A stretch of DNA of 64,000 nt from assembly GCF_024298885.1 (NCBI RefSeq), contig NZ_CP101166.1, forward strand, positions 2,291,149-2,355,148, in the 5' to 3' direction. Under the pieces are notes generated by a model, which had not been told where the DNA came from, searched no databases, and was given only the letters and a program-made list of their open reading frames with translations. Below are positions 592 through 46,698 of the stretch, one piece after another; within the stretch, counting starts at the first letter, position 1; each line of letters opens with the position of its first letter. Origin of the DNA: Haloglomus halophilum (GTDB taxonomy: Archaea > Halobacteriota > Halobacteria > Halobacteriales > Haloarculaceae). Both the position numbers and the translations under genes were made by a program.

Positions 592-2469
592 ATGACCGAC
601 AGCCCCGCGCCGGCCGCCAGGCTCCCTGCGGTCGGTGTCCTGCACGCACTGACGTTCGTCGTCGCGTTCTGTAGCTTCGCGTACGAGCTCGTCTACGCCG
701 AGTTGCTGACGGTCGTCTTCGGCGGTACCGTCACCCAGTACGGGCTCACGGTCGGGCTGTTCTTCTCGTCGCTGGGCATCGGCTCGTTCGCCTCGCGGGC
801 GCTCGACGACGACCGGCCGGCGAACTTCCTCCGCGTGGAGTTCCTGCTCGCGCTGGTCGGCCCCGCCGGCTTCCTGTTCGTCCTGCTCGTGACGGCGAGC
901 GAGCCGCCGGCGTACCTCCCGTACGGGGTCGTCGAGGTCGCCGCCCGGCTGCCCGTGGTGGCCGTCGGCCTGCTGTCCGGGTTCGAACTCCCGCTCCTGA
1001 CCGCGCTGGTCGAGCGCGAGGCCACCGACGGTCGCCGGGCGGGTCCGCTCGCCCGGGTTCGCCAGCGCCTCCGGGCGGGGACCTACCGCGCCGCGGGCCT
1101 GCTGTTCCACGTCTCCCGTGACGAGGAGGCCGTCGAAGGCTACCCGACGGTGCTGGGGATGGACTACCTCGGCGGGCTGGCCGGGGCGCTCCTGTACGTC
1201 TTCTGGCTGTATCCCCGGTACGGGCTGGTGGCGACGGTGTTCGTGCTGGGGTTGCTGAACGGGCTGGCCGCGCTGGCGTTCGTCGCCCGGTTCAGCACCT
1301 GGAGCCCGTTCGTGGGCGGGGACGGGACGGGCACGGGCGGGGACGGAACCGGCACGGCCGACGAGAGTGCCGCGGCCGACGGCGGGCACCGCCGGCTCCG
1401 CAGCGAGGAGGCCCGGGCGCTGATACTCGCCACGCTCCTGCTCACCGCGACCTACGCCGGGGTCGTCCTCGCCGCCGACCGCGTCGAGGGCGAGGTGGAG
1501 ACGTTCTACTTCGCGAACCGCATCGAGGCGGAGTACCCCGACGGCACCATCGACGCCACCGTCTCGGCGGTCGAGCGGACCCGGTACCAGCGTATCGTCC
1601 GCTACGAGCGGACCTGGACCGGCACCGGCCCGAACCCGTACTTCGCGGGGGCGAGCGAGGAGTGCCTGCGGCTCGGGACCGCCGTCCAGCTCTGTGAGTC
1701 GTGGGCGGACTCCTACCACCAGGGGCTCGTCGACGTGCCGATGACGATGTACGAGAACGGGAGCGAGACGGAGGTGCTGTTGCTCGGCGGCGGCGACTGG
1801 ATCGCTGCCGACCACCTGCGCGCGTACAACGTCACCGTCGACCACGTCGACCTCGACGGGGAGTTCATGCAGCGGACGAGGAATCGCGAGTTCTACGCCC
1901 GCTACCACGACGACGCCTACGAGTACGACCGGCTGAACACGACGGTCGGCGACGCGTGGCGCTACCTCGGCGAGACCGACGAGACGTACGACCTCATCCT
2001 GCTCGACCTCCCCGGCGCCGAGGACGACGACCTGCTGCGGCTCTACTCGACGGAGTTCTACGACCGCCTCCGGACCCACCTCGAACCGGACGGCGTCGTC
2101 GGGACGTGGGTCTACTCCCGTTACGACCAGGCCCGCCACCACGCCGCCTACGTCGAGACCGTACGGGCGGCCGGTTTCGACCGCCACGTCGCCTACAGCG
2201 CCTGGGAGGACCTCGACGCCGACGGCGAGACCGAGCGCGTCGAGCGGTTCTACCTGCTCTCGCCGGACGACGGCCCCGCGTTCGACCCCGCCGCGGGAGG
2301 GGCCTACGTCCGCCGGCACGCCGACCGCTACCGCGGCCTGCAGTGGGAGCCGACCCCGTCCTACCGCGGCGTCCGACCGAACCGCGTCCTCCACCCGAAC
2401 TACGACATCCTCATCCGGCCGAACCTGCGCAACGAGGACCGACACACCGGGAGGTGGTTGCCGTGGTGA
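592..2469 (+). CDS. membrane-anchored spermidine synthase-like aminopropyltransferase (N-terminal multi-TM domain plus C-terminal PABS domain)
   Basis: N-terminal hydrophobic helices, then LLLGGGDWIAADHL...VDLDGEF...DLILLDLPGAEDD, which is typical of spermidine synthase family AdoMet/aminopropyl binding. Confidence 0.7.
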   Translation: MTDSPAPAARLPAVGVLHALTFVVAFCSFAYELVYAELLTVVFGGTVTQYGLTVGLFFSSLGIGSFASRALDDDRPANFLRVEFLLALVGPAGFLFVLLVTASEPPAYLPYGVVEVAARLPVVAVGLLSGFELPLLTALVEREATDGRRAGPLARVRQRLRAGTYRAAGLLFHVSRDEEAVEGYPTVLGMDYLGGLAGALLYVFWLYPRYGLVATVFVLGLLNGLAALAFVARFSTWSPFVGGDGTGTGGDGTGTADESAAADGGHRRLRSEEARALILATLLLTATYAGVVLAADRVEGEVETFYFANRIEAEYPDGTIDATVSAVERTRYQRIVRYERTWTGTGPNPYFAGASEECLRLGTAVQLCESWADSYHQGLVDVPMTMYENGSETEVLLLGGGDWIAADHLRAYNVTVDHVDLDGEFMQRTRNREFYARYHDDAYEYDRLNTTVGDAWRYLGETDETYDLILLDLPGAEDDDLLRLYSTEFYDRLRTHLEPDGVVGTWVYSRYDQARHHAAYVETVRAAGFDRHVAYSAWEDLDADGETERVERFYLLSPDDGPAFDPAAGGAYVRRHADRYRGLQWEPTPSYRGVRPNRVLHPNYDILIRPNLRNEDRHTGRWLPW

Positions 2470-3087: not shown

Positions 3088-4053
3088 ATGACCGACGAAC
3101 CCGCGTGGGCGGACGGCCCGGAGGCGACACACTACGACGGGGACGTGACGCTGACGGGTGAGCCCGGTCCCGTCGTCGTGGAGGACCCTGCGGACACGTT
3201 CGTCCGGGCCGACGCCGTGACCGGCGACCTGAAACTGGTCGACGCGGAGTACGTCTTCACCGACACGCCGGTGGAGGGGGGGACGACCGTCGCCCAGCCG
3301 GAACTCCGGGTCGCGGGCGACGTCGAGGACGGCTACGTCGACCGGCGCGGCGTGGAGGGTGACGCCGTCATCGCCGACGCCGAGGACGTGTTCGTCGCCG
3401 GCCGGGCCGCCGGAACGCTGGACGTGACGGGCGCCGAGAGCGTCTTCCGGGCGAGCGGTGACCCGCCGGACACGAGCGGCTTCGAGTCGTTCGTCGGCTG
3501 GCGGCGCTCCGGGAACGTCGAGAACCCCGACGGCATCGTACTGGTCGGCGCCCGCCACGACGTGACCGTCTCCGGTGTCACCGGCGACCTGACCGTCTAC
3601 GTCGTCGGGCACGACCACCGCGTTCGCGTGGACGGGCCACGCGGGACCGATGCCGACGTGACCGTCCGGTTCGTCGGGTACGAGAACACCGTCCGGCTGG
3701 GGCCGTATCTGACCGTCGCCGACACCGTCGAGGGCGGCTACGACAACGTCGTCGACGCCGACCCGTTCCCGGTGAACGACCTCATCGAGACCAGCCACGA
3801 CGAGGCCTACGGGGTCGCCTCCTTCGGCCGCACGAAGGTGACCTACCAGGCAGAGGCCACCGAGGACTGGTGTCCCAACTGCGGTGCCGAGGCCGACGCC
3901 ATCATCGAGCGCCACCAGGAGGAGGTGTTCCTCCTGTTCGGCATCCCGGTGAAGACCTACGACGAGGGCGGCGTCTCCTACGAGTGCGAGGAGTGTGCGG
4001 TCCGGAACGACACGGCCCTCTCGGAGTCCGAGCGGCGGTCGGTGCTGCGCTGA
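3088..4053 (+). CDS. hypothetical repeat protein (beta-strand-rich VTGD/VAGD repeats, bactofilin/beta-solenoid-like) with a C-terminal CxxC...CxxC zinc ribbon
   Basis: Repeated motifs VTGDLKLVDAEYVF / RVAGDVEDGYVD / VSGVTGDLTVYVVG; C-terminal CPNCGAE...YECEECA. Confidence 0.55.
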   Translation: MTDEPAWADGPEATHYDGDVTLTGEPGPVVVEDPADTFVRADAVTGDLKLVDAEYVFTDTPVEGGTTVAQPELRVAGDVEDGYVDRRGVEGDAVIADAEDVFVAGRAAGTLDVTGAESVFRASGDPPDTSGFESFVGWRRSGNVENPDGIVLVGARHDVTVSGVTGDLTVYVVGHDHRVRVDGPRGTDADVTVRFVGYENTVRLGPYLTVADTVEGGYDNVVDADPFPVNDLIETSHDEAYGVASFGRTKVTYQAEATEDWCPNCGAEADAIIERHQEEVFLLFGIPVKTYDEGGVSYECEECAVRNDTALSESERRSVLR

Positions 4054-21106: not shown

Positions 21107-21440
21107 GGTGGCGCTGCTTTCGATGGAACCGGATAGAAAGCCCCCGACCGCTCGACCAGCCGCGGCTCGCTGCGGTCCTCGGTCGCTCACTACGTTCACT
21201 CCCTGCGGTCCTTGTGTCGCCGGGGCTGGGTCGAGCGGCCGGCCCCTTTCAGTCCCGCCCTGTGGCCTGTTCGGGGTAGCGCTCGCGCGTGGTGGTTCCG
21301 GCCGAGCAGGGTATCCCCACCCCTCCCCGCGCGGGCGCCGAGAACGGCTCACCCCCTCGGCCGGAGGCCTCGGGGTTCACCGCGAGTGGCGCCCGCGCGC
21401 TTCCTGCTCCCGGAACCGGTCGGCCAACCAACCGCCCCAC
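21107..21440 (-). repeat. hairpin-rich intergenic repeat element, copy R1 (core about 21133-21267 plus extension to about 21440)
   Basis: The reverse complement of 21133-21267 aligns nearly base-for-base with 23713-23836 and 46366-46492 (GGGACTGAAAGGGGCCGG...CTCGAC...GCAGGGAG...GCGCAGCGAG...TCGAGC...GGGGGCTTTC). The extension 21268-21440 matches the reverse complement of 46205-46360. Confidence 0.75.
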
Positions 21441-21537
21441 GGCCGGGAGCGCGTGGCGCAGCGCGGACGCGCAAGCCCGCGCGACACGGGGAAGGGCAGG
21501 GCCGCCGCGAGCCTCCACACTCCACGGTCGGGTGGGA

Positions 21538-21700
21538 ATGGAAGGGGCCGCGGGCTCGACCCTGCCCGGACGACGCAAGCAGCGGGGCGCTACGCGCCCC
21601 GGGCGAACGGCGAAGCCGTGAGCACCACAGGGTGAGCGAAGCGAACCCGAGGAGCGCAGCGAGGCCCGGCAGGTCGAGCCCGCGGGGGCTTCCTATCTAT
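21538..21700 (+). repeat. repeat element copy R2 (degenerate/rearranged), forming an inverted pair with R1
   Basis: Contains GGAAGGGGCCGCGGGCTCGAC...ACGACGCAAGCAGC...GAGCGAAGCGAACCCGAGGAGCGCAGCGAGGCCCGGCAGGTCGAGCCCGCGGGGGCTTCC, matching the core motif order. Confidence 0.6.
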
Positions 21701-23559: not shown

Positions 23560-23836
23560 TGATGTTTCTCCCAGTCGTTCCACGGTGGAGCGCGACGAAC
23601 AGAGCGGTTGGAAGTCCCTGGTCCCTTCCATTCCCACCCGAAATGCCCGTTCCACGGAGCGTACGCACCGAGCCAGCACGGTGTGAAGCGCCCCTGGACC
23701 GCCGAACCGAGCGGGACTGAAAGGGGCCGGCTGCTCGACGAAGCACGACGACGCAAGCACTGCAGGGAGCGAGCGAAGCGAGCGACCGAGGCGCGCAGCG
23801 AGGCACGCGAGTCGAGCAGCCGGGGGCTTTCAACAG
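23560..23836 (+). repeat. repeat element copy R3 (core 23713-23836 plus upstream related segment)
   Basis: Core GGGACTGAAAGGGGCCGGCTGCTCGACGAAGCACGACGACGCAAGCACTGCAGG...GCGCGCAGCGAGGCACGCGAGTCGAGCAGCCGGGGGCTTTC; the upstream CCCTTCCATTCCCACCC is the reverse complement of 21524-21540. Confidence 0.75.
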
Positions 23837-26785: not shown

Positions 26786-27000
26786 GGAAGCCCTCGCGCT
26801 CTCGACTCGCGCGCCTCGCTGCGCGCTTCGGCCTCGCTTCGCTCGGCCTGCAGTGCTTGCGTCGTCCTCAGAATCGAAGATTCTGCTGGGCTGCGGGAGA
26901 GCTTCGCTCTCCCGAACGGCGTGCTTCGTCGAGAGGATTGTCGGCTCCGCCGACAATCTATTAGCTGGCGGCTTCGCCGCCAGCCGCGCTCGCCCTTCCA
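26786..27000 (-). repeat. repeat element copy R4, inside the lysine operon (dapD-lysA spacer), core interrupted by a 52-nt two-hairpin insertion
   Basis: CTCGACTCGCGCGCCTCGCTGCGCGC...CCTGCAGTGCTTGCGTCGTC[52-nt insert]GTGCTTCGTCGAGAGG is the reverse complement of the R3 core; downstream perfect hairpins GATTGTCGG-ctcc-CCGACAATC and CTGGCGGC-ttc-GCCGCCAG. Confidence 0.7.
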
Positions 27001-27059
27001 GTCCGCCAGGACGTCGCCTGTCACACCGAGCGACGCTACTTGCTGGAGAGGTGCGTGCC

Positions 27060-34584: not shown

Positions 34585-35217
34585 ATGAGCGAGGAGTCGG
34601 TCGACGAGGAGAAACGGGCCACACTCCGCCGGTTCGCCGCGGTCGGCGCCGGCGGCCCACTGGCTCGACTCGCCGGCTCCGACGCGGACGCGAGCGCCCC
34701 CGACGACCGCGAGACCACCAGCGAGGTCCCCGCGGCCATCCGTGGCTACCTCGCCACGACGCCGGGCGCACACTTCTCGAAGCTCCGGGACGACCTCCGC
34801 CTGGGCACCGGCGAGGCCCAGTACCACCTCCGCCGGCTGGCAGAGCGCGACGCCGTGGACTCCTGGAAGGACGGCGACTACCGTCGCTACGCTCCGGCCG
34901 GCCGGTTCTCGGACTTCGAACGCCGGACGCTGGGCTTCCTCCGACGGGACACCGCTCGCGGCCTGCTCGTGGAACTGCTCCGCGACCCGGACGCGACGGG
35001 GGCAGAGCTCGCCGACCGCCTCGGCGTCTCGGCACCCACCGTCAGCAAGTACGCCGCCGAACTCGCGGAGGCGGGCCTGCTCGACCGCTCGGACGGCTAC
35101 GACCTCACGCGTCCGGAGACGACGCTGTTGCTTCTGGTGCGGTACGCCGACTCCTTCGGCCCCGACGCCGTCGCGCTCGCCGCTGACGCCGACGAGCTTG
35201 TGGAGTATTCAGGATAA
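34585..35217 (+). CDS. tandem winged-helix (ArsR/TrmB-like) transcriptional regulator, divergent from the 32635-34464 gene
   Basis: Two wHTH units (GAHFSKLRDDLRLGTGEAQYHLRRL; ELADRLGVSAPTVSKYAAELAEAGLL). Confidence 0.55.
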   Translation: MSEESVDEEKRATLRRFAAVGAGGPLARLAGSDADASAPDDRETTSEVPAAIRGYLATTPGAHFSKLRDDLRLGTGEAQYHLRRLAERDAVDSWKDGDYRRYAPAGRFSDFERRTLGFLRRDTARGLLVELLRDPDATGAELADRLGVSAPTVSKYAAELAEAGLLDRSDGYDLTRPETTLLLLVRYADSFGPDAVALAADADELVEYSG

Positions 35218-35271
35218 CTGCGGGAGAAACCACGAGGTTGGCGGATTACAAACGAATGACGCCAGCTGTCC

Positions 35272-35532
35272 TCAGACCGTGACCTTCCACGTCGTACCCG
35301 AGGAGTATCCCCATTTCTCGACCTCGAACGGGGCGGCCTCCTTCACCGCACGCATGTTCGCGCCGACCTCCTTCGCGCTCATGTCCAGCGCCTCGCCGAC
35401 GAGCCGCGACTTGAAGTAGGCCGTCCCGTCGGCCTCCGTCCGGAGGTAGTCGACGATGCGCTGCTGTTTCTCGTTCAGGTCCTCGGTGAGGTCGGTCTCG
35501 CTCTCGTTCGCCTGTGCCGCCGTCGCGCTCAT
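35272..35532 (-). CDS. small conserved hypothetical, probable winged-helix DNA-binding protein
   Basis: 86 aa; QQRIVDYLRTEADGTAYFKSRLVGEALDMSAKEV. Confidence 0.45.
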   Translation of the reverse strand: MSATAAQANESETDLTEDLNEKQQRIVDYLRTEADGTAYFKSRLVGEALDMSAKEVGANMRAVKEAAPFEVEKWGYSSGTTWKVTV

Positions 35533-35599
35533 ACCTCACTGGATGGGAGAGACACGGATAGTGGGTTTGGTATGATGGGTTAATCGGGTGGTAGAGGTC

Positions 35600-36000
35600 C
35601 TGACGGGCTGTTATTGGCGAATTCAGCGACCGTGGCTGGAGTCGTGGCGTCCATCGAAGCCGGTTGCTTGGTACGGCGGGGAAACTTCCGATCCGCAATC
35701 GGATCAGAATCGAGCGGTTGCGTACGCGCGAGCAGGCGGGAACTCCGTTCCCGGAGCCCGCGGCGAAGCCGCGGACAGGGCGGGACTCCGTCCCGCTTGC
35801 AGTCGGACGTAGTCCGACGACGAAGCGAGCGCGTTTGGGTTCGAGACGGCTTCGCCGTCTCGTCCTCCCGAAAATCTCCGATTTTCGGAGACACCAGCCC
35901 GAGCGACCGAAGGGAGCGAGGGCTGGCATTTTCTCTGAACGTTTTTGCGACGAGCGGTGTCCACAGGCTCACGCCTACGGCGCGAGTCGAGGGCACCCGA
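35600..36000 (+). repeat. hairpin-dense intergenic region, loosely related to the R-family repeats (R5); possible structured RNA
   Basis: Perfect hairpins GTCGGAC-gta-GTCCGAC, CGAGACGGC-ttc-GCCGTCTCG, CGAAAAT-ctccg-ATTTTCG, GCCGCGGC-gaa-GCCGCGGAC; shares GACGACGAAGCGAGCG and GCGCGAGTCGAG with the core. Confidence 0.45.
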
Positions 36001-36012
36001 GGAGAGAAAAGC

Positions 36013-37233
36013 TCAATGGAACGCGATGGGCGTCCCGAGCTCGTCGCCGTCGTGGTCGATTTTCGCCATCGCCTCGTCGAAGTCCTCGCGGCGGACCTCG
36101 GTGCGGTCGTCGCGGATGGCGAACATCCCGGCCTCCGTCGAGAGCGACTCCAGTTCCGCGCCGGTGAAGCCCTCGGTGGCCTCGGCGAGCGACGCGAGGT
36201 CCACGTCGTCGGAGAGGTTCATGTCGCGCGTGTGGATCTTGAGGATCTCCGTGCGGCCCTCGTCGTTGGGTTCGGGCACCTCGATGAGGCGATCGAAGCG
36301 GCCCGGCCGGAGGATGGCCCGGTCGAGCATGTCGAAGCGGTTGGTGGCGGCGATGATGGAGATGTCCCCACGCTGGTCGAAGCCGTCCATCTCCGAGAGG
36401 AGCTGCATCATCGTCCGCTGGACCTCGGCGTCGCCCGACGTTTTGGACTCCGTGCGCTTCGAGGCGATGGCGTCGATCTCGTCGATGAAGATGATGGCGG
36501 GCTCGCGCTCCTCGGCGAGTTCGAAGAGGTCCCGGACGAGCCGGGCGCCCTCGCCGATGAACTTCTGGACCAGCTCGGAGCCGGCCATCTTGATGAAGGT
36601 GGCGTCCGTCTGGTTGGCGACCGCTTTCGCGAGCATCGTCTTCCCGGTGCCCGGCGGGCCGTGGAGCAGGACGCCGGTGGGCGGTTCGATGCCGACGGTC
36701 TCGAACACCTCCGGGTTGGTGAGTGGGTCCTCGACGGCCTCGCGGACCTCGGTGATCTGCTCCTCGAGCCCGCCGATGTCGGCGTAGGTGACGGTCGGGG
36801 AGGCGTCGACCTGCATCGCCTGTGCCCGGGCGTCCTTCTCGGTGTCGAGGACGGTCTGGATGGCGAAGGAGTCGTTGATAGCGACGCGGTCGCCGGCCTC
36901 GAGCTTGTCGGCGAGCCGCGGGGAGACGTCCGTGAGGACCTCCTGGTTGTTGCCGTGCTGTTTGAGGACGACCTCGTCGTCGGCGATCTCCTCGACGGTG
37001 GCGAGGTACAGCGAGGAGGTCTTCAGCGCCTCGTTCTCCCGCTGGAGTTTGTCGACCTCCTCCCGGAGCTCGGACTGGCGGTCCTGGGCGGCGTCGAGCT
37101 GACTCGTCAGCTCCTCGTGGACGCGCGTGACCTCGGCGAAATGGTCCTCCAGCGCGGCCAGCCGCTCGTCGGGCCCCATGTCCGGGTCCAGGTCGAGCGT
37201 GGGTTGGTCTGGTAGTGAGGGACTACGCGACAT
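36013..37233 (-). CDS. pan: proteasome-activating nucleotidase
   Basis: N-terminal coiled coil; AAA module [22 protein letters not shown], and a C-terminal hydrophobic-Tyr-X-like tail. Confidence 0.9.
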
Positions 37234-46204: not shown

Positions 46205-46492
46205 TCAGGCTGGTTCCGAGAACAGGAAGCGCGCGAGCGCCCACCACCGAGACCGCGACCGGGGGGAGCGTGTCGAGGTAATCGGCGCTCGCGCGGGGAG
46301 GTGTGGGGACCCCGCGCTCCGCTGGAACCGCCACACGCGAACGCTCGGTGCAACCAGCCACAGGGTGGGACTGAAAGGGGCTGCACGCTCGACGAAGCAC
46401 GGCGACGCAAGCACCGCAGGCCGAACGAAGTGAGGCCGCGGCGCGCAGCGAGCCGCGCGAGTCGAGCGTGTAGGGGCTTTCTACAGTCGCTG
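46205..46492 (+). repeat. repeat element copy R6 (extension 46205-46360 plus core 46366-46492), upstream of rpl15e
   Basis: Core CCACAGGGTGGGACTGAAAGGGGCTGCACGCTCGACGAAGCACGGCGACGCAAGCACCGCAGG...GCGCGCAGCGAGCCGCGCGAGTCGAGCGTGTAGGGGCTTTC, over 85% identical to R3; extension equals the reverse complement of the R1 extension. Confidence 0.75.
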
Positions 46493-46698
46493 TCCACCAC
46501 TTGCGGCTCCACCTCTCTCACGCCCACGTTCCGAAGCCCTTAGAAGCCCGAACCAAGAAGATAGCTCCAACTCGTCGGTCGCGGGCACCGACGGGCACCT
46601 GCTACGGCAGGATGGAATGTGGCCAGCGGGGGCGAAGCCCCCGGAGAGGCGGCGCAGCCGCCGATGGGCTGAACCACGCAACGCCCGCGGTGACACAC

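Follow-up and report, generated by a model that had tools for sequence, protein, structure and literature searches.

Introduction

Much is known about the miniature palindromic repeats of bacteria, whereas those of archaea have received very little study; the only close description from archaea is that of the 'enigmatic' small mobile repeats of one Haloquadratum species. A 480-bp spacer (positions 35533-36012) that separates the gene pan from a gene of the DUF7123 family was analysed in a stretch of 64,000 nt from the haloarchaeon Haloglomus halophilum (contig NZ_CP101166.1, positions 2,291,149 to 2,355,148), which is called the window below. The spacer is probably a conserved intergenic backbone that has been colonised repeatedly by apparently mobile, non-autonomous palindromic elements resembling repetitive extragenic palindromes (REPs). 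These elements are tiny, diverse in their stems and common to many haloarchaeal genera, and sister species differ in which of the sites are filled and which are empty.

The CGTC-tagged REPs of bacteria are short G+C-rich palindromes, one end of which carries a conserved 4-nt tag and the opposite end a tail of 3 nt (Di Nocera et al. 2013, PMC3733652). They occur mostly as dimers, are extragenic but at times lie in genes or inside other palindromes, and are distributed unevenly between close strains. The units described here are like them in these respects, tag and tail being seen family-wide rather than in every hairpin of the spacer. The CGTC-tagged REPs have no dedicated transposase, and the survey reports no such REPs from archaea (PMC3733652). 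The units described here have an archaeal host and loops of 3 nt, whereas the loops of the CGTC-tagged REPs are 4-5 nt long. Their tag and tail are SGTT or CGTC with TSA, in place of CGTC with CCA, and their dimers are arranged tail-to-tail rather than head-to-head, with many stem types built on one architecture. As in REPs and bacterial interspersed mosaic elements (BIMEs) generally, the units are short extragenic palindromes in many dispersed copies (on plasmids, in metagenome contigs and in the window) and form dimers or clusters, with seven double modules in the window. Their length is 17-25 bp, against 20-40 bp for REP/BIME units. REPs and BIMEs carry a terminal tag (GTAG or CGTC); here flank words are enriched family-wide, and in the spacer only the hairpins designated h4 and h5 (Table 1) are tagged.

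The repeat SMR-A of Haloquadratum walsbyi is haloarchaeal, has no transposase gene and makes no target duplication (Dyall-Smith et al. 2011, PMC3119063). It prefers the near-terminal palindromes of IS605-type transposons and of palindrome-associated transposable elements (PATEs), and its mode of mobilisation is unknown (PMC3119063). The present modules share these features: the sites of modules M1 and M2 of the spacer show no target duplication, and relatives of the modules lie in the loop of the ISNph12 palindrome and in palindromes of the same type in five contigs. SMR-A is about 110 bp long, its terminal inverted repeats are prominent, and copies of one type are more than 95% identical (PMC3119063). 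None of this was found here; modules of 43-60 bp with very diverse stems are set apart from SMR-A by description.

PATEs are terminal-only derivatives of IS200/IS605-type elements with a minimal length of 52 bp (PMC3119063). Like the modules, they are tiny, non-coding, palindrome-based and haloarchaeal, and lack terminal inverted repeats and target duplication. A PATE begins with a 4-5-nt target word about 18-20 nt from the left palindrome and ends with TTCAC or GTCAA 8 nt after the right one (PMC3119063), whereas the modules have 4-5 nt outside each hairpin and none of those end words. Membership in the PATEs was therefore rejected on end architecture, by comparison with Table S9 of PMC3119063. 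The modules sit within PATE palindromes and are not PATE ends.

Template switching is known to invert small loops and to correct palindromes, as in chloroplast non-coding hairpins and bacterial quasi-palindrome mutation. The hairpins described here are alike in that one loop differs by inversion between two close species while the stem is the same, and in that changes in both arms keep the stems perfect. The process explains the upkeep of hairpins, but not the appearance of the same hairpins at new sites or in other genera.

The closest described relatives are the bacterial CGTC-tagged REPs and the Haloquadratum SMR-A, and some, but not all, of the defining features of each are present. Literature searches with the sequence words of the repeat and for archaeal GNA triloops or REPs and REP-associated tyrosine transposases (RAYTs) in Halobacteria found no description. 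The system is offered for the study of hairpin-DNA movement in archaea, of a possible restraint of TnpB-type transposons and of the upkeep of perfect palindromes. For annotation, structure alone is no ground for calling such hairpin arrays RNA genes.

Hairpin content and unit architecture

Seven perfect hairpins (stem of at least 7 bp, loop of 3 nt) are present in the spacer. Six start at 35737, 35758, 35780, 35802, 35842 and 35868, and the seventh, which overlaps, at 35875. In 2000 dinucleotide shuffles the mean number was 0.05 and the maximum 2, and the count stays at 5 or below in every 480-nt stretch elsewhere in the window. An earlier note on this DNA, made from the sequence alone, had called the spacer far longer than a promoter and a terminator require, and its structure does go far beyond that need. 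The RNA folding z-scores of the spacer are -3.4 for the + strand and -4.2 for the - strand. Nearly all loops are GNA or TNC closed by a C-G pair; C-GNA-G triloops are unusually stable in DNA.

Four of the five stem-loops listed as perfect in the earlier note are perfect: CCGCGGC-gaa-GCCGCGG (35758-35774), GTCGGAC-gta-GTCCGAC (35802-35818), CGAGACGGC-ttc-GCCGTCTCG (35842-35862) and one that reads CCGAAAATC-tcc-GATTTTCGG (35868-35888). The remaining one, CGGGGAAAC...TTCCG, has a stem of only 4 bp, and the real hairpin beside it is TTCCGATCCG-caat-CGGATCAGAA, in which 9 of 10 positions pair. Absent from that list were CGGGAAC-tcc-GTTCCCG (35737-35753), GCGGGAC-tcc-GTCCCGC (35780-35796), the 33-nt hairpin CCAGCCC...GGGCTGG and the terminator hairpin near pan.

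In the basic unit, a hairpin of 17-25 bp, a perfect stem of 7-11 bp encloses a loop of 3 nt, which with its closing pair often reads C-GNA-G or C-TNC-G. Across the family the unit is bounded by the short 5' tag SGTT or CGTC and the 3' tail TSA, and the usual arrangement is a tail-to-tail double hairpin of 43-60 bp with a linker of 4-9 nt. On one side of the units GGTT is enriched 10-24-fold and CGTT 6-14-fold, together with CGTC, and on the other side ATGA/ATCA is enriched 10-34-fold, together with TSAT. This enrichment makes the tagged unit much like the bacterial CGTC-tagged REPs. Seven double modules were observed in the window where 0.26 were expected. One of them is the leader of the ribosomal protein eL15 gene (46598-46680), which was picked up by the scan because it is built of two adjacent 3-nt-loop hairpins (46627-46662); the other six are all intergenic.

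Perfect stems are found in 47 of 54 tagged units (87%). Loop triplets vary freely and independently of the way in which the module is oriented. One stem, CGGGAGAGC/GCTCTCCCG, is the same in H. halophilum (26894-26914) and in H. salinum (contig L084, 20244-20264), whereas the loop, with both hairpins in one orientation, is GAA in the first and TTC in the second. When a template switch takes place inside a palindrome, inverted loops and corrected arm pairs are its typical outcome. The perfect stems, the predominance of 3-nt loops, the free and inverting loops and the flank tags point to a process at the DNA level. Mismatch types, a possible guide to the structural strand, showed no bias in 7 tagged units, too few cases for an assignment.

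Filled and empty sites in orthologous spacers

Exact look-ups of the PAN and DUF7123 proteins of the window gave no match, and relatives were obtained by homologue search. The alignment of orthologous spacers has eight rows and seven distinct spacers, from H. halophilum, H. salinum, H. litoreum and four metagenomic relatives (L226, L231, L234 and L236). A scan of genome contigs with the PAN protein returned generic AAA+ matches and no close relative.

Module M1 is identical at 56 of 56 positions in H. salinum and is missing as one block from H. litoreum. Module M2 is present in the three named species and in L226 and L234, and absent from L231 and L236. In the latter two, the backbone arms on either side pair without interruption over a 3-nt loop (ACGCGCTCGC-tcc-GCTCGCGCGT); because the flanks form a single hairpin where M2 is missing, M2 lies inside the loop of an older hairpin. 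Most of the second arm with its adjoining motif (35716-35732) is identical at 15 of 17 positions to both H. salinum and H. litoreum. Module M3 occurs in H. halophilum only, and the six other spacers lack it as one block. No target duplication was found when the filled and empty sites of M1 and M2 were compared.

The hairpin content of the spacer differs between the relatives at other points as well. H. salinum, L226, L234 and L231 each have further hairpins of their own, and the position of the terminator hairpin is occupied by a different hairpin or hairpin set in each species. The region of the imperfect hairpin specific to H. halophilum is unrelated in the other species (8-12 of 30 positions identical). 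The 33-nt hairpin is kept in three species, with the middle base of its tip loop as the sole difference (GAA, GGA or GTA on the + strand); together with the T-runs that follow it (35894-35947), it is identical to H. salinum at 50 and to H. litoreum at 51 of 54 positions. Similar T-run motifs follow hairpins in other genera. Part of the conserved block GGTTGCTTGGTACGGCGGGGAAAC is invariant in all eight rows of the alignment.

Dispersal of the modules

Comparison of the spacer with plasmids by blastn detected double hairpins resembling M1 in Halomicrobium, Natrinema and Natronorubrum. Whatever its loop, the h5 stem occurs at no fewer than 120 metagenome loci and, among the matches listed, in at least six flank contexts, the commonest of which is a double hairpin with the linker T(G/C)AT(G/C)(A/C). 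This recurrent module of about 55-60 bp has the form (S)GTT-(CGAGACGGC nnn GCCGTCTCG)-T(G/C)AT(G/C)(A/C)-(CGARA... nnn ...TYTCG)-AAC. It was seen in both orientations, with several partner hairpins, alongside several other contexts, among the metagenome matches listed. Relatives of M1 with the same partner hairpin are present in many metagenome contigs. The canonical 60-nt double hairpin was found at 70 places on 43 plasmids, all haloarchaeal and from at least 19 genera; its plasmid copies are 77-97% identical, and one plasmid has 8 such places.

Other hairpins also recur. The h6 stem is present at six other loci (one Halomicrobium plasmid and five metagenome contigs), and a relative of h4/M2 with the same linker and flank was found on a Halolamina plasmid. 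The stem CAGAACGC of a hairpin specific to H. salinum appears again in 8 unrelated contigs, and the GCTGGCGGC hairpin at 26964 of the window again in the pan spacer of L231. The suggestion in the earlier note that the spacer is related to repeats holds. A scan of viral contigs for the h5 stem gave only 4 matches, none of them informative. Formation of the palindromes locally from flanking DNA, as a footprint of hairpin-end repair, was rejected, since the same stems recur in other genera.

A contig of Methanoculleus sediminis (L005, 4181-4325) contains similar 3-nt-loop hairpins, a TCATGC linker and a GCGAGCGAAGCGAGC motif, and the element type may therefore reach beyond Halobacteria.

Insertion into hairpins and mobile elements

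Table S9 of PMC3119063 contains a 54-nt double hairpin in the loop of the 3' palindrome of ISNph12, which is not commented on there. The ISNph12-type palindrome also holds a module in five metagenome contigs (L121, L152, L177, L216 and L219). In three further contigs, a 55-nt double hairpin splits tnpB at the same codon (HSQS/AQRV) and causes a frameshift.

Modules are also found within copies of a repeat family of about 125 nt. They occur in the window at 21583-21625 and in a hairpin array at 26.8 kb, and in Halomicrobium. In H. salinum, copy B of the 125-nt repeat, beside the eL15 gene, contains a double-hairpin module (L084, 793-841), and its relative position matches that of the module within the 26.8-kb copy. 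No module interrupts the H. halophilum counterpart (46363-46485), and similarity between the two 'orthologous' copies is only about 70%.

The 26.8-kb array (26869-26984) lies between dapD and lysA and consists of four 3-nt-loop hairpins, that is, two double modules within a copy of the 125-nt family. At the corresponding place H. litoreum has a different, non-palindromic sequence. Pairwise alignment of the spacer with this array showed no colinear similarity.

A single h5 hairpin stands between T-runs and a CCACGGGCGAC...GTCGCCCGTGG palindrome in the contigs L122, L132, L139, L157, L158 and L174, and on the reverse strand in L104, L134, L165 and L198. This palindrome resembles the near-terminal palindrome of IS605 elements of the ISNph6/8 type.

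The 125-nt repeat family

The 125-nt family, whose members form a long hairpin, extends from GGGACTGAAAGGGGC at the 5' end to GGGGGCTTTC at the 3' end, with abundant GA mismatches inside. It is present on 44 plasmids and in more than 20 haloarchaeal genera at 69-81% identity, is unannotated and has no counterpart in Rfam. Family-wide, it lies 50-140 nt downstream of co-oriented genes. Compensatory changes were found in 17 of 31 predicted pairs. The family could be a new structured RNA or an element similar to miniature inverted-repeat transposable elements. A covariance model (R1) was built from two window copies aligned with relatives from eleven other genera. It scores jointly the 5' GGGACUGAAAGGGGC, a covarying 13-bp stem, the boxes GACGCAAGCAC and GCGCAGCGAG and the 3' GGGGGCUUUC, and gives the five window copies 30-116 bits.

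Proposed mechanism and alternative explanations

In the favoured explanation, the backbone would comprise the pan T-run with its terminator hairpin, the two + strand T-runs, the older hairpins (one or two) and the DUF7123 promoter, and the load carried in H. halophilum would be M1, M2 and M3 together with single hairpins. The units may fold as hairpins in single-stranded DNA (ssDNA) and may be mobilised in trans by an enzyme acting on ssDNA hairpins, for example an IS200/IS605-type Y1/HUH transposase; the proposed parallel is with bacterial REPs and REPINs (REP doublets forming hairpins) and their RAYT enzymes. Alternatively, the units could be copied from hairpin to hairpin by template switching, which, inside a palindrome, would leave the arms matched and flip the loop. 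Any effect on the expression of pan or the DUF7123 gene, through protection of RNA 3' ends or termination, would be secondary. Mobility is supported by the filled and empty sites and by the wide dispersal, whereas the mobilising mechanism is suggested by analogy with IS200/IS605 and REP/RAYT systems.

A broader proposal is made tentatively and is open to considerable doubt. Halobacteria, and perhaps some methanogens, may harbour REP-like hairpin units, undescribed as such, that target other hairpins in DNA at their loops or feet; among these targets would be the palindromes at the ends of IS605/TnpB elements, in the guide-RNA region. Such units might spread by an ssDNA mechanism that differs from those of all characterised transposons or by transposase-free template switching, and in doing so decorate intergenic DNA and disable TnpB elements.

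Several observations weigh against colonisation by mobile elements. Between the species M1 is 100% and M2 98-100% identical, despite differences of 10-28% at fourfold-degenerate sites; this exceeds the conservation to be expected of a neutral selfish insert, and the hairpins may therefore have a function at this site. M3 is flanked on both sides by CCCGCC(C)TG and, when shifted by 43 nt, shows 72% similarity with the unit next to it, so that M3 could be a local tandem duplication, or could have been lost from the other lineages by deletion between short repeats, rather than inserted. The tags are degenerate in this spacer, where only h4 (CGTC) and h5 (GGTT) fit. The count of 3-nt loops (267, against 30-82 for other lengths) is inflated, because about 120 of the loci were gathered through a 3-nt-loop pattern. 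The analysis connected the units with no transposase or other enzyme that could mobilise them, and it observed no movement directly; for H. halophilum itself, copies were counted within the 64-kb window.

Conservation is also an argument for a small non-coding RNA on the + strand, antisense to the flanking genes and running from about 35680-35720 to the T-runs at 35927-35947, in which the hairpins would be RNA helices and the inserted modules tolerated loop expansions. With the M1 block, missing in H. litoreum, set aside, the core (35780-35947) is 93-100% identical among three species, against 27-57% in the adjoining parts of the spacer and differences of 10-30% at the fourfold-degenerate sites of pan and its neighbours. 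The two + strand T-runs after the last hairpin are present in all seven spacers and also in L233, a locus with unrelated downstream DNA and a different downstream gene. The h4 stem has compensatory changes in L226 and L234, and two one-sided changes, in h3 of L226 and in the closing pair of h4 of L234, give G.U pairs on the + strand only; the strand assignment, however, rests on these two wobble cases. Against this reading, the stems are perfect and the loops 3 nt long, and elsewhere in the family the loops flip strand and vary freely. Modules are missing from some orthologues, hairpin sets differ between close species, and the same modules stand in unrelated DNA of many genera, coding genes included. 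No conserved TATA-like element or transcription factor B recognition element was seen upstream on the + strand in the orthologue alignment and hairpin maps. The Rfam scan called for in the earlier note matched the spacer to no family: at gathering thresholds the eL15 leader is the sole match in the whole window, and a permissive scan of 35200-36100 gave three matches of 12-17 bits against thresholds of 39-178. A + strand small RNA of this kind is unlikely on balance, although the sequence comparisons keep it alive as a minority reading, as they do the alternative of a terminator that acts on antisense transcripts.

Even less probable is a cis-acting role, in which the hairpins would be kept because they act on the - strand messages of pan and DUF7123 as 3'-end stabilisers, processing sites or terminator boosters, the roles proposed for bacterial REPs in 3' untranslated regions. 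The hairpins do lie immediately downstream of pan, their conservation exceeds the neutral level, in the inner stem of the terminator hairpin one pair is a G.U wobble on the pan-sense strand alone, and the related 125-nt repeat keeps its place behind co-oriented genes. The pan T-run, however, precedes all of the hairpins, so that most of them would lie beyond the likely 3' end of the pan message; the set of hairpins varies between close species, and the two one-sided changes noted above break pairing on the - strand. Decay from a copy of the 125-nt family, which the 'degenerate repeat copy' of the earlier note would imply, is a very improbable origin of the spacer. Short G/A-rich motifs are common to both (GACGACGAAGCGAGCG, GCGCGAGTCGAG and GAGCGA-xCGAAGx-GAGCGA), and the family often hosts the same hairpin modules. 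Both 'repeat core' motifs named in the earlier note are present (35816-35831 and 35980-35991), but for the 12-mer GCGCGAGTCGAG, with up to one mismatch allowed, the 6 occurrences do not differ significantly from the 4.35 expected. With all filters off, R1 scores at best 5.6 bits in the spacer, far from the range of true copies, and pairwise alignment showed no colinear similarity. The low R1 score and the chance frequency of the 12-mer mean that the spacer is no recognisable copy of the family. Colonisation of a conserved backbone by REP-like elements is accordingly preferred as the probable explanation.

Flanking genes and other features

The gene at 36013-37233 on the - strand encodes a PAN protein that is 100% identical to Pan2 of Haloglomus halophilum and 99%, 98% and 92% identical to the proteins of H. 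salinum, H. litoreum and H. irregulare, respectively, as determined by homologue search. The gene at 35272-35532, also on the - strand, encodes a protein of 86 aa with the Pfam domain DUF7123. The sequence and coordinates given in the earlier note for the spacer and both flanking genes were correct. The T-rich stretch after the pan stop, which it had read as a terminator, is a T-run conserved here in every orthologous spacer; oligo-T is a termination signal for archaeal RNA polymerase. A scan for sigma-70 promoters and hairpin-plus-T terminators, which is uninformative for an archaeon, found no terminator.

The segment 35533-35597, which encloses the promoter-proximal block of the DUF7123 gene, is identical at 60 of 65 positions to H. 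salinum and at 52 of 65 to H. litoreum, and the ATTAAC within the block is invariant in all eight rows. From the position of its TATA-like sequence, about 45-53 nt before the ATG, the block is a putative DUF7123 promoter.

Table 1. Features of the pan-DUF7123 spacer, copies of the 125-nt family in the window and modules interrupting tnpB in metagenome contigs
Feature	Position	Strand	Remarks
Promoter-proximal block of DUF7123 gene	35541-35585	-	TATA-like GATTAACCC at 35577-35585
Conserved block GGTTGCTTGGTACGGCGGGGAAAC	35662-35685		Identical at 18 of 24 positions to H. salinum and to H. litoreum
Imperfect hairpin TTCCGATCCG-caat-CGGATCAGAA	35686-35709		Specific to H. halophilum
Backbone hairpin, second arm GCTCGCGCGT (- strand)	35724-35733		Followed by conserved TA(C/T)GCA
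Module M3, 43-bp double hairpin	35733-35775	-	h1 35737-35753, h2 35758-35774
Module M2, double hairpin	35780-35823	-	h3 35780-35796, h4 35802-35818; TCGTC tag on - strand
Backbone hairpin, arm ACGCGCTCGC (- strand)	35825-35834		
Module M1, 56-bp double hairpin	35836-35891	-	h5 35842-35862, h6 35868-35888
Hairpin CCAGCCC-GAGCGA-CCGAAGG-GAGCGAG-GGCTGG	35894-35926		G/A-rich interior, mini-hairpin tip
Two T-runs CATTTTCTCTGAACGTTTTTG	35927-35947	+	Conserved in every orthologue
Terminator-region hairpin, outer stem GGTGTCC/GGGCACC	35956-35997		RNA folds of both strands
Inner stem of terminator hairpin CTCACGCC-tac-GGCGCGAG	35968-35986		
pan T-run GCTTTTCTCT (- strand)	36003-36012	-	Immediately 3' of pan stop; likely pan termination signal
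125-nt family copy	21132-21260	-	
125-nt family copy	21530-21697	+	
125-nt family copy	23709-23835	+	
125-nt family copy	about 26790-27010	-	
125-nt family copy	46363-46485	+	
tnpB-interrupting module	L091 1496-1552		
tnpB-interrupting module	L186 about 1748-1800		
tnpB-interrupting module	L217 about 3992-4046		

The metagenomic loci L233 (1331-2211) and L231 (2640-3330) encode the same PAN protein. They are identical across pan and the T-run motif and then diverge totally, with the breakpoint within the hairpin region.

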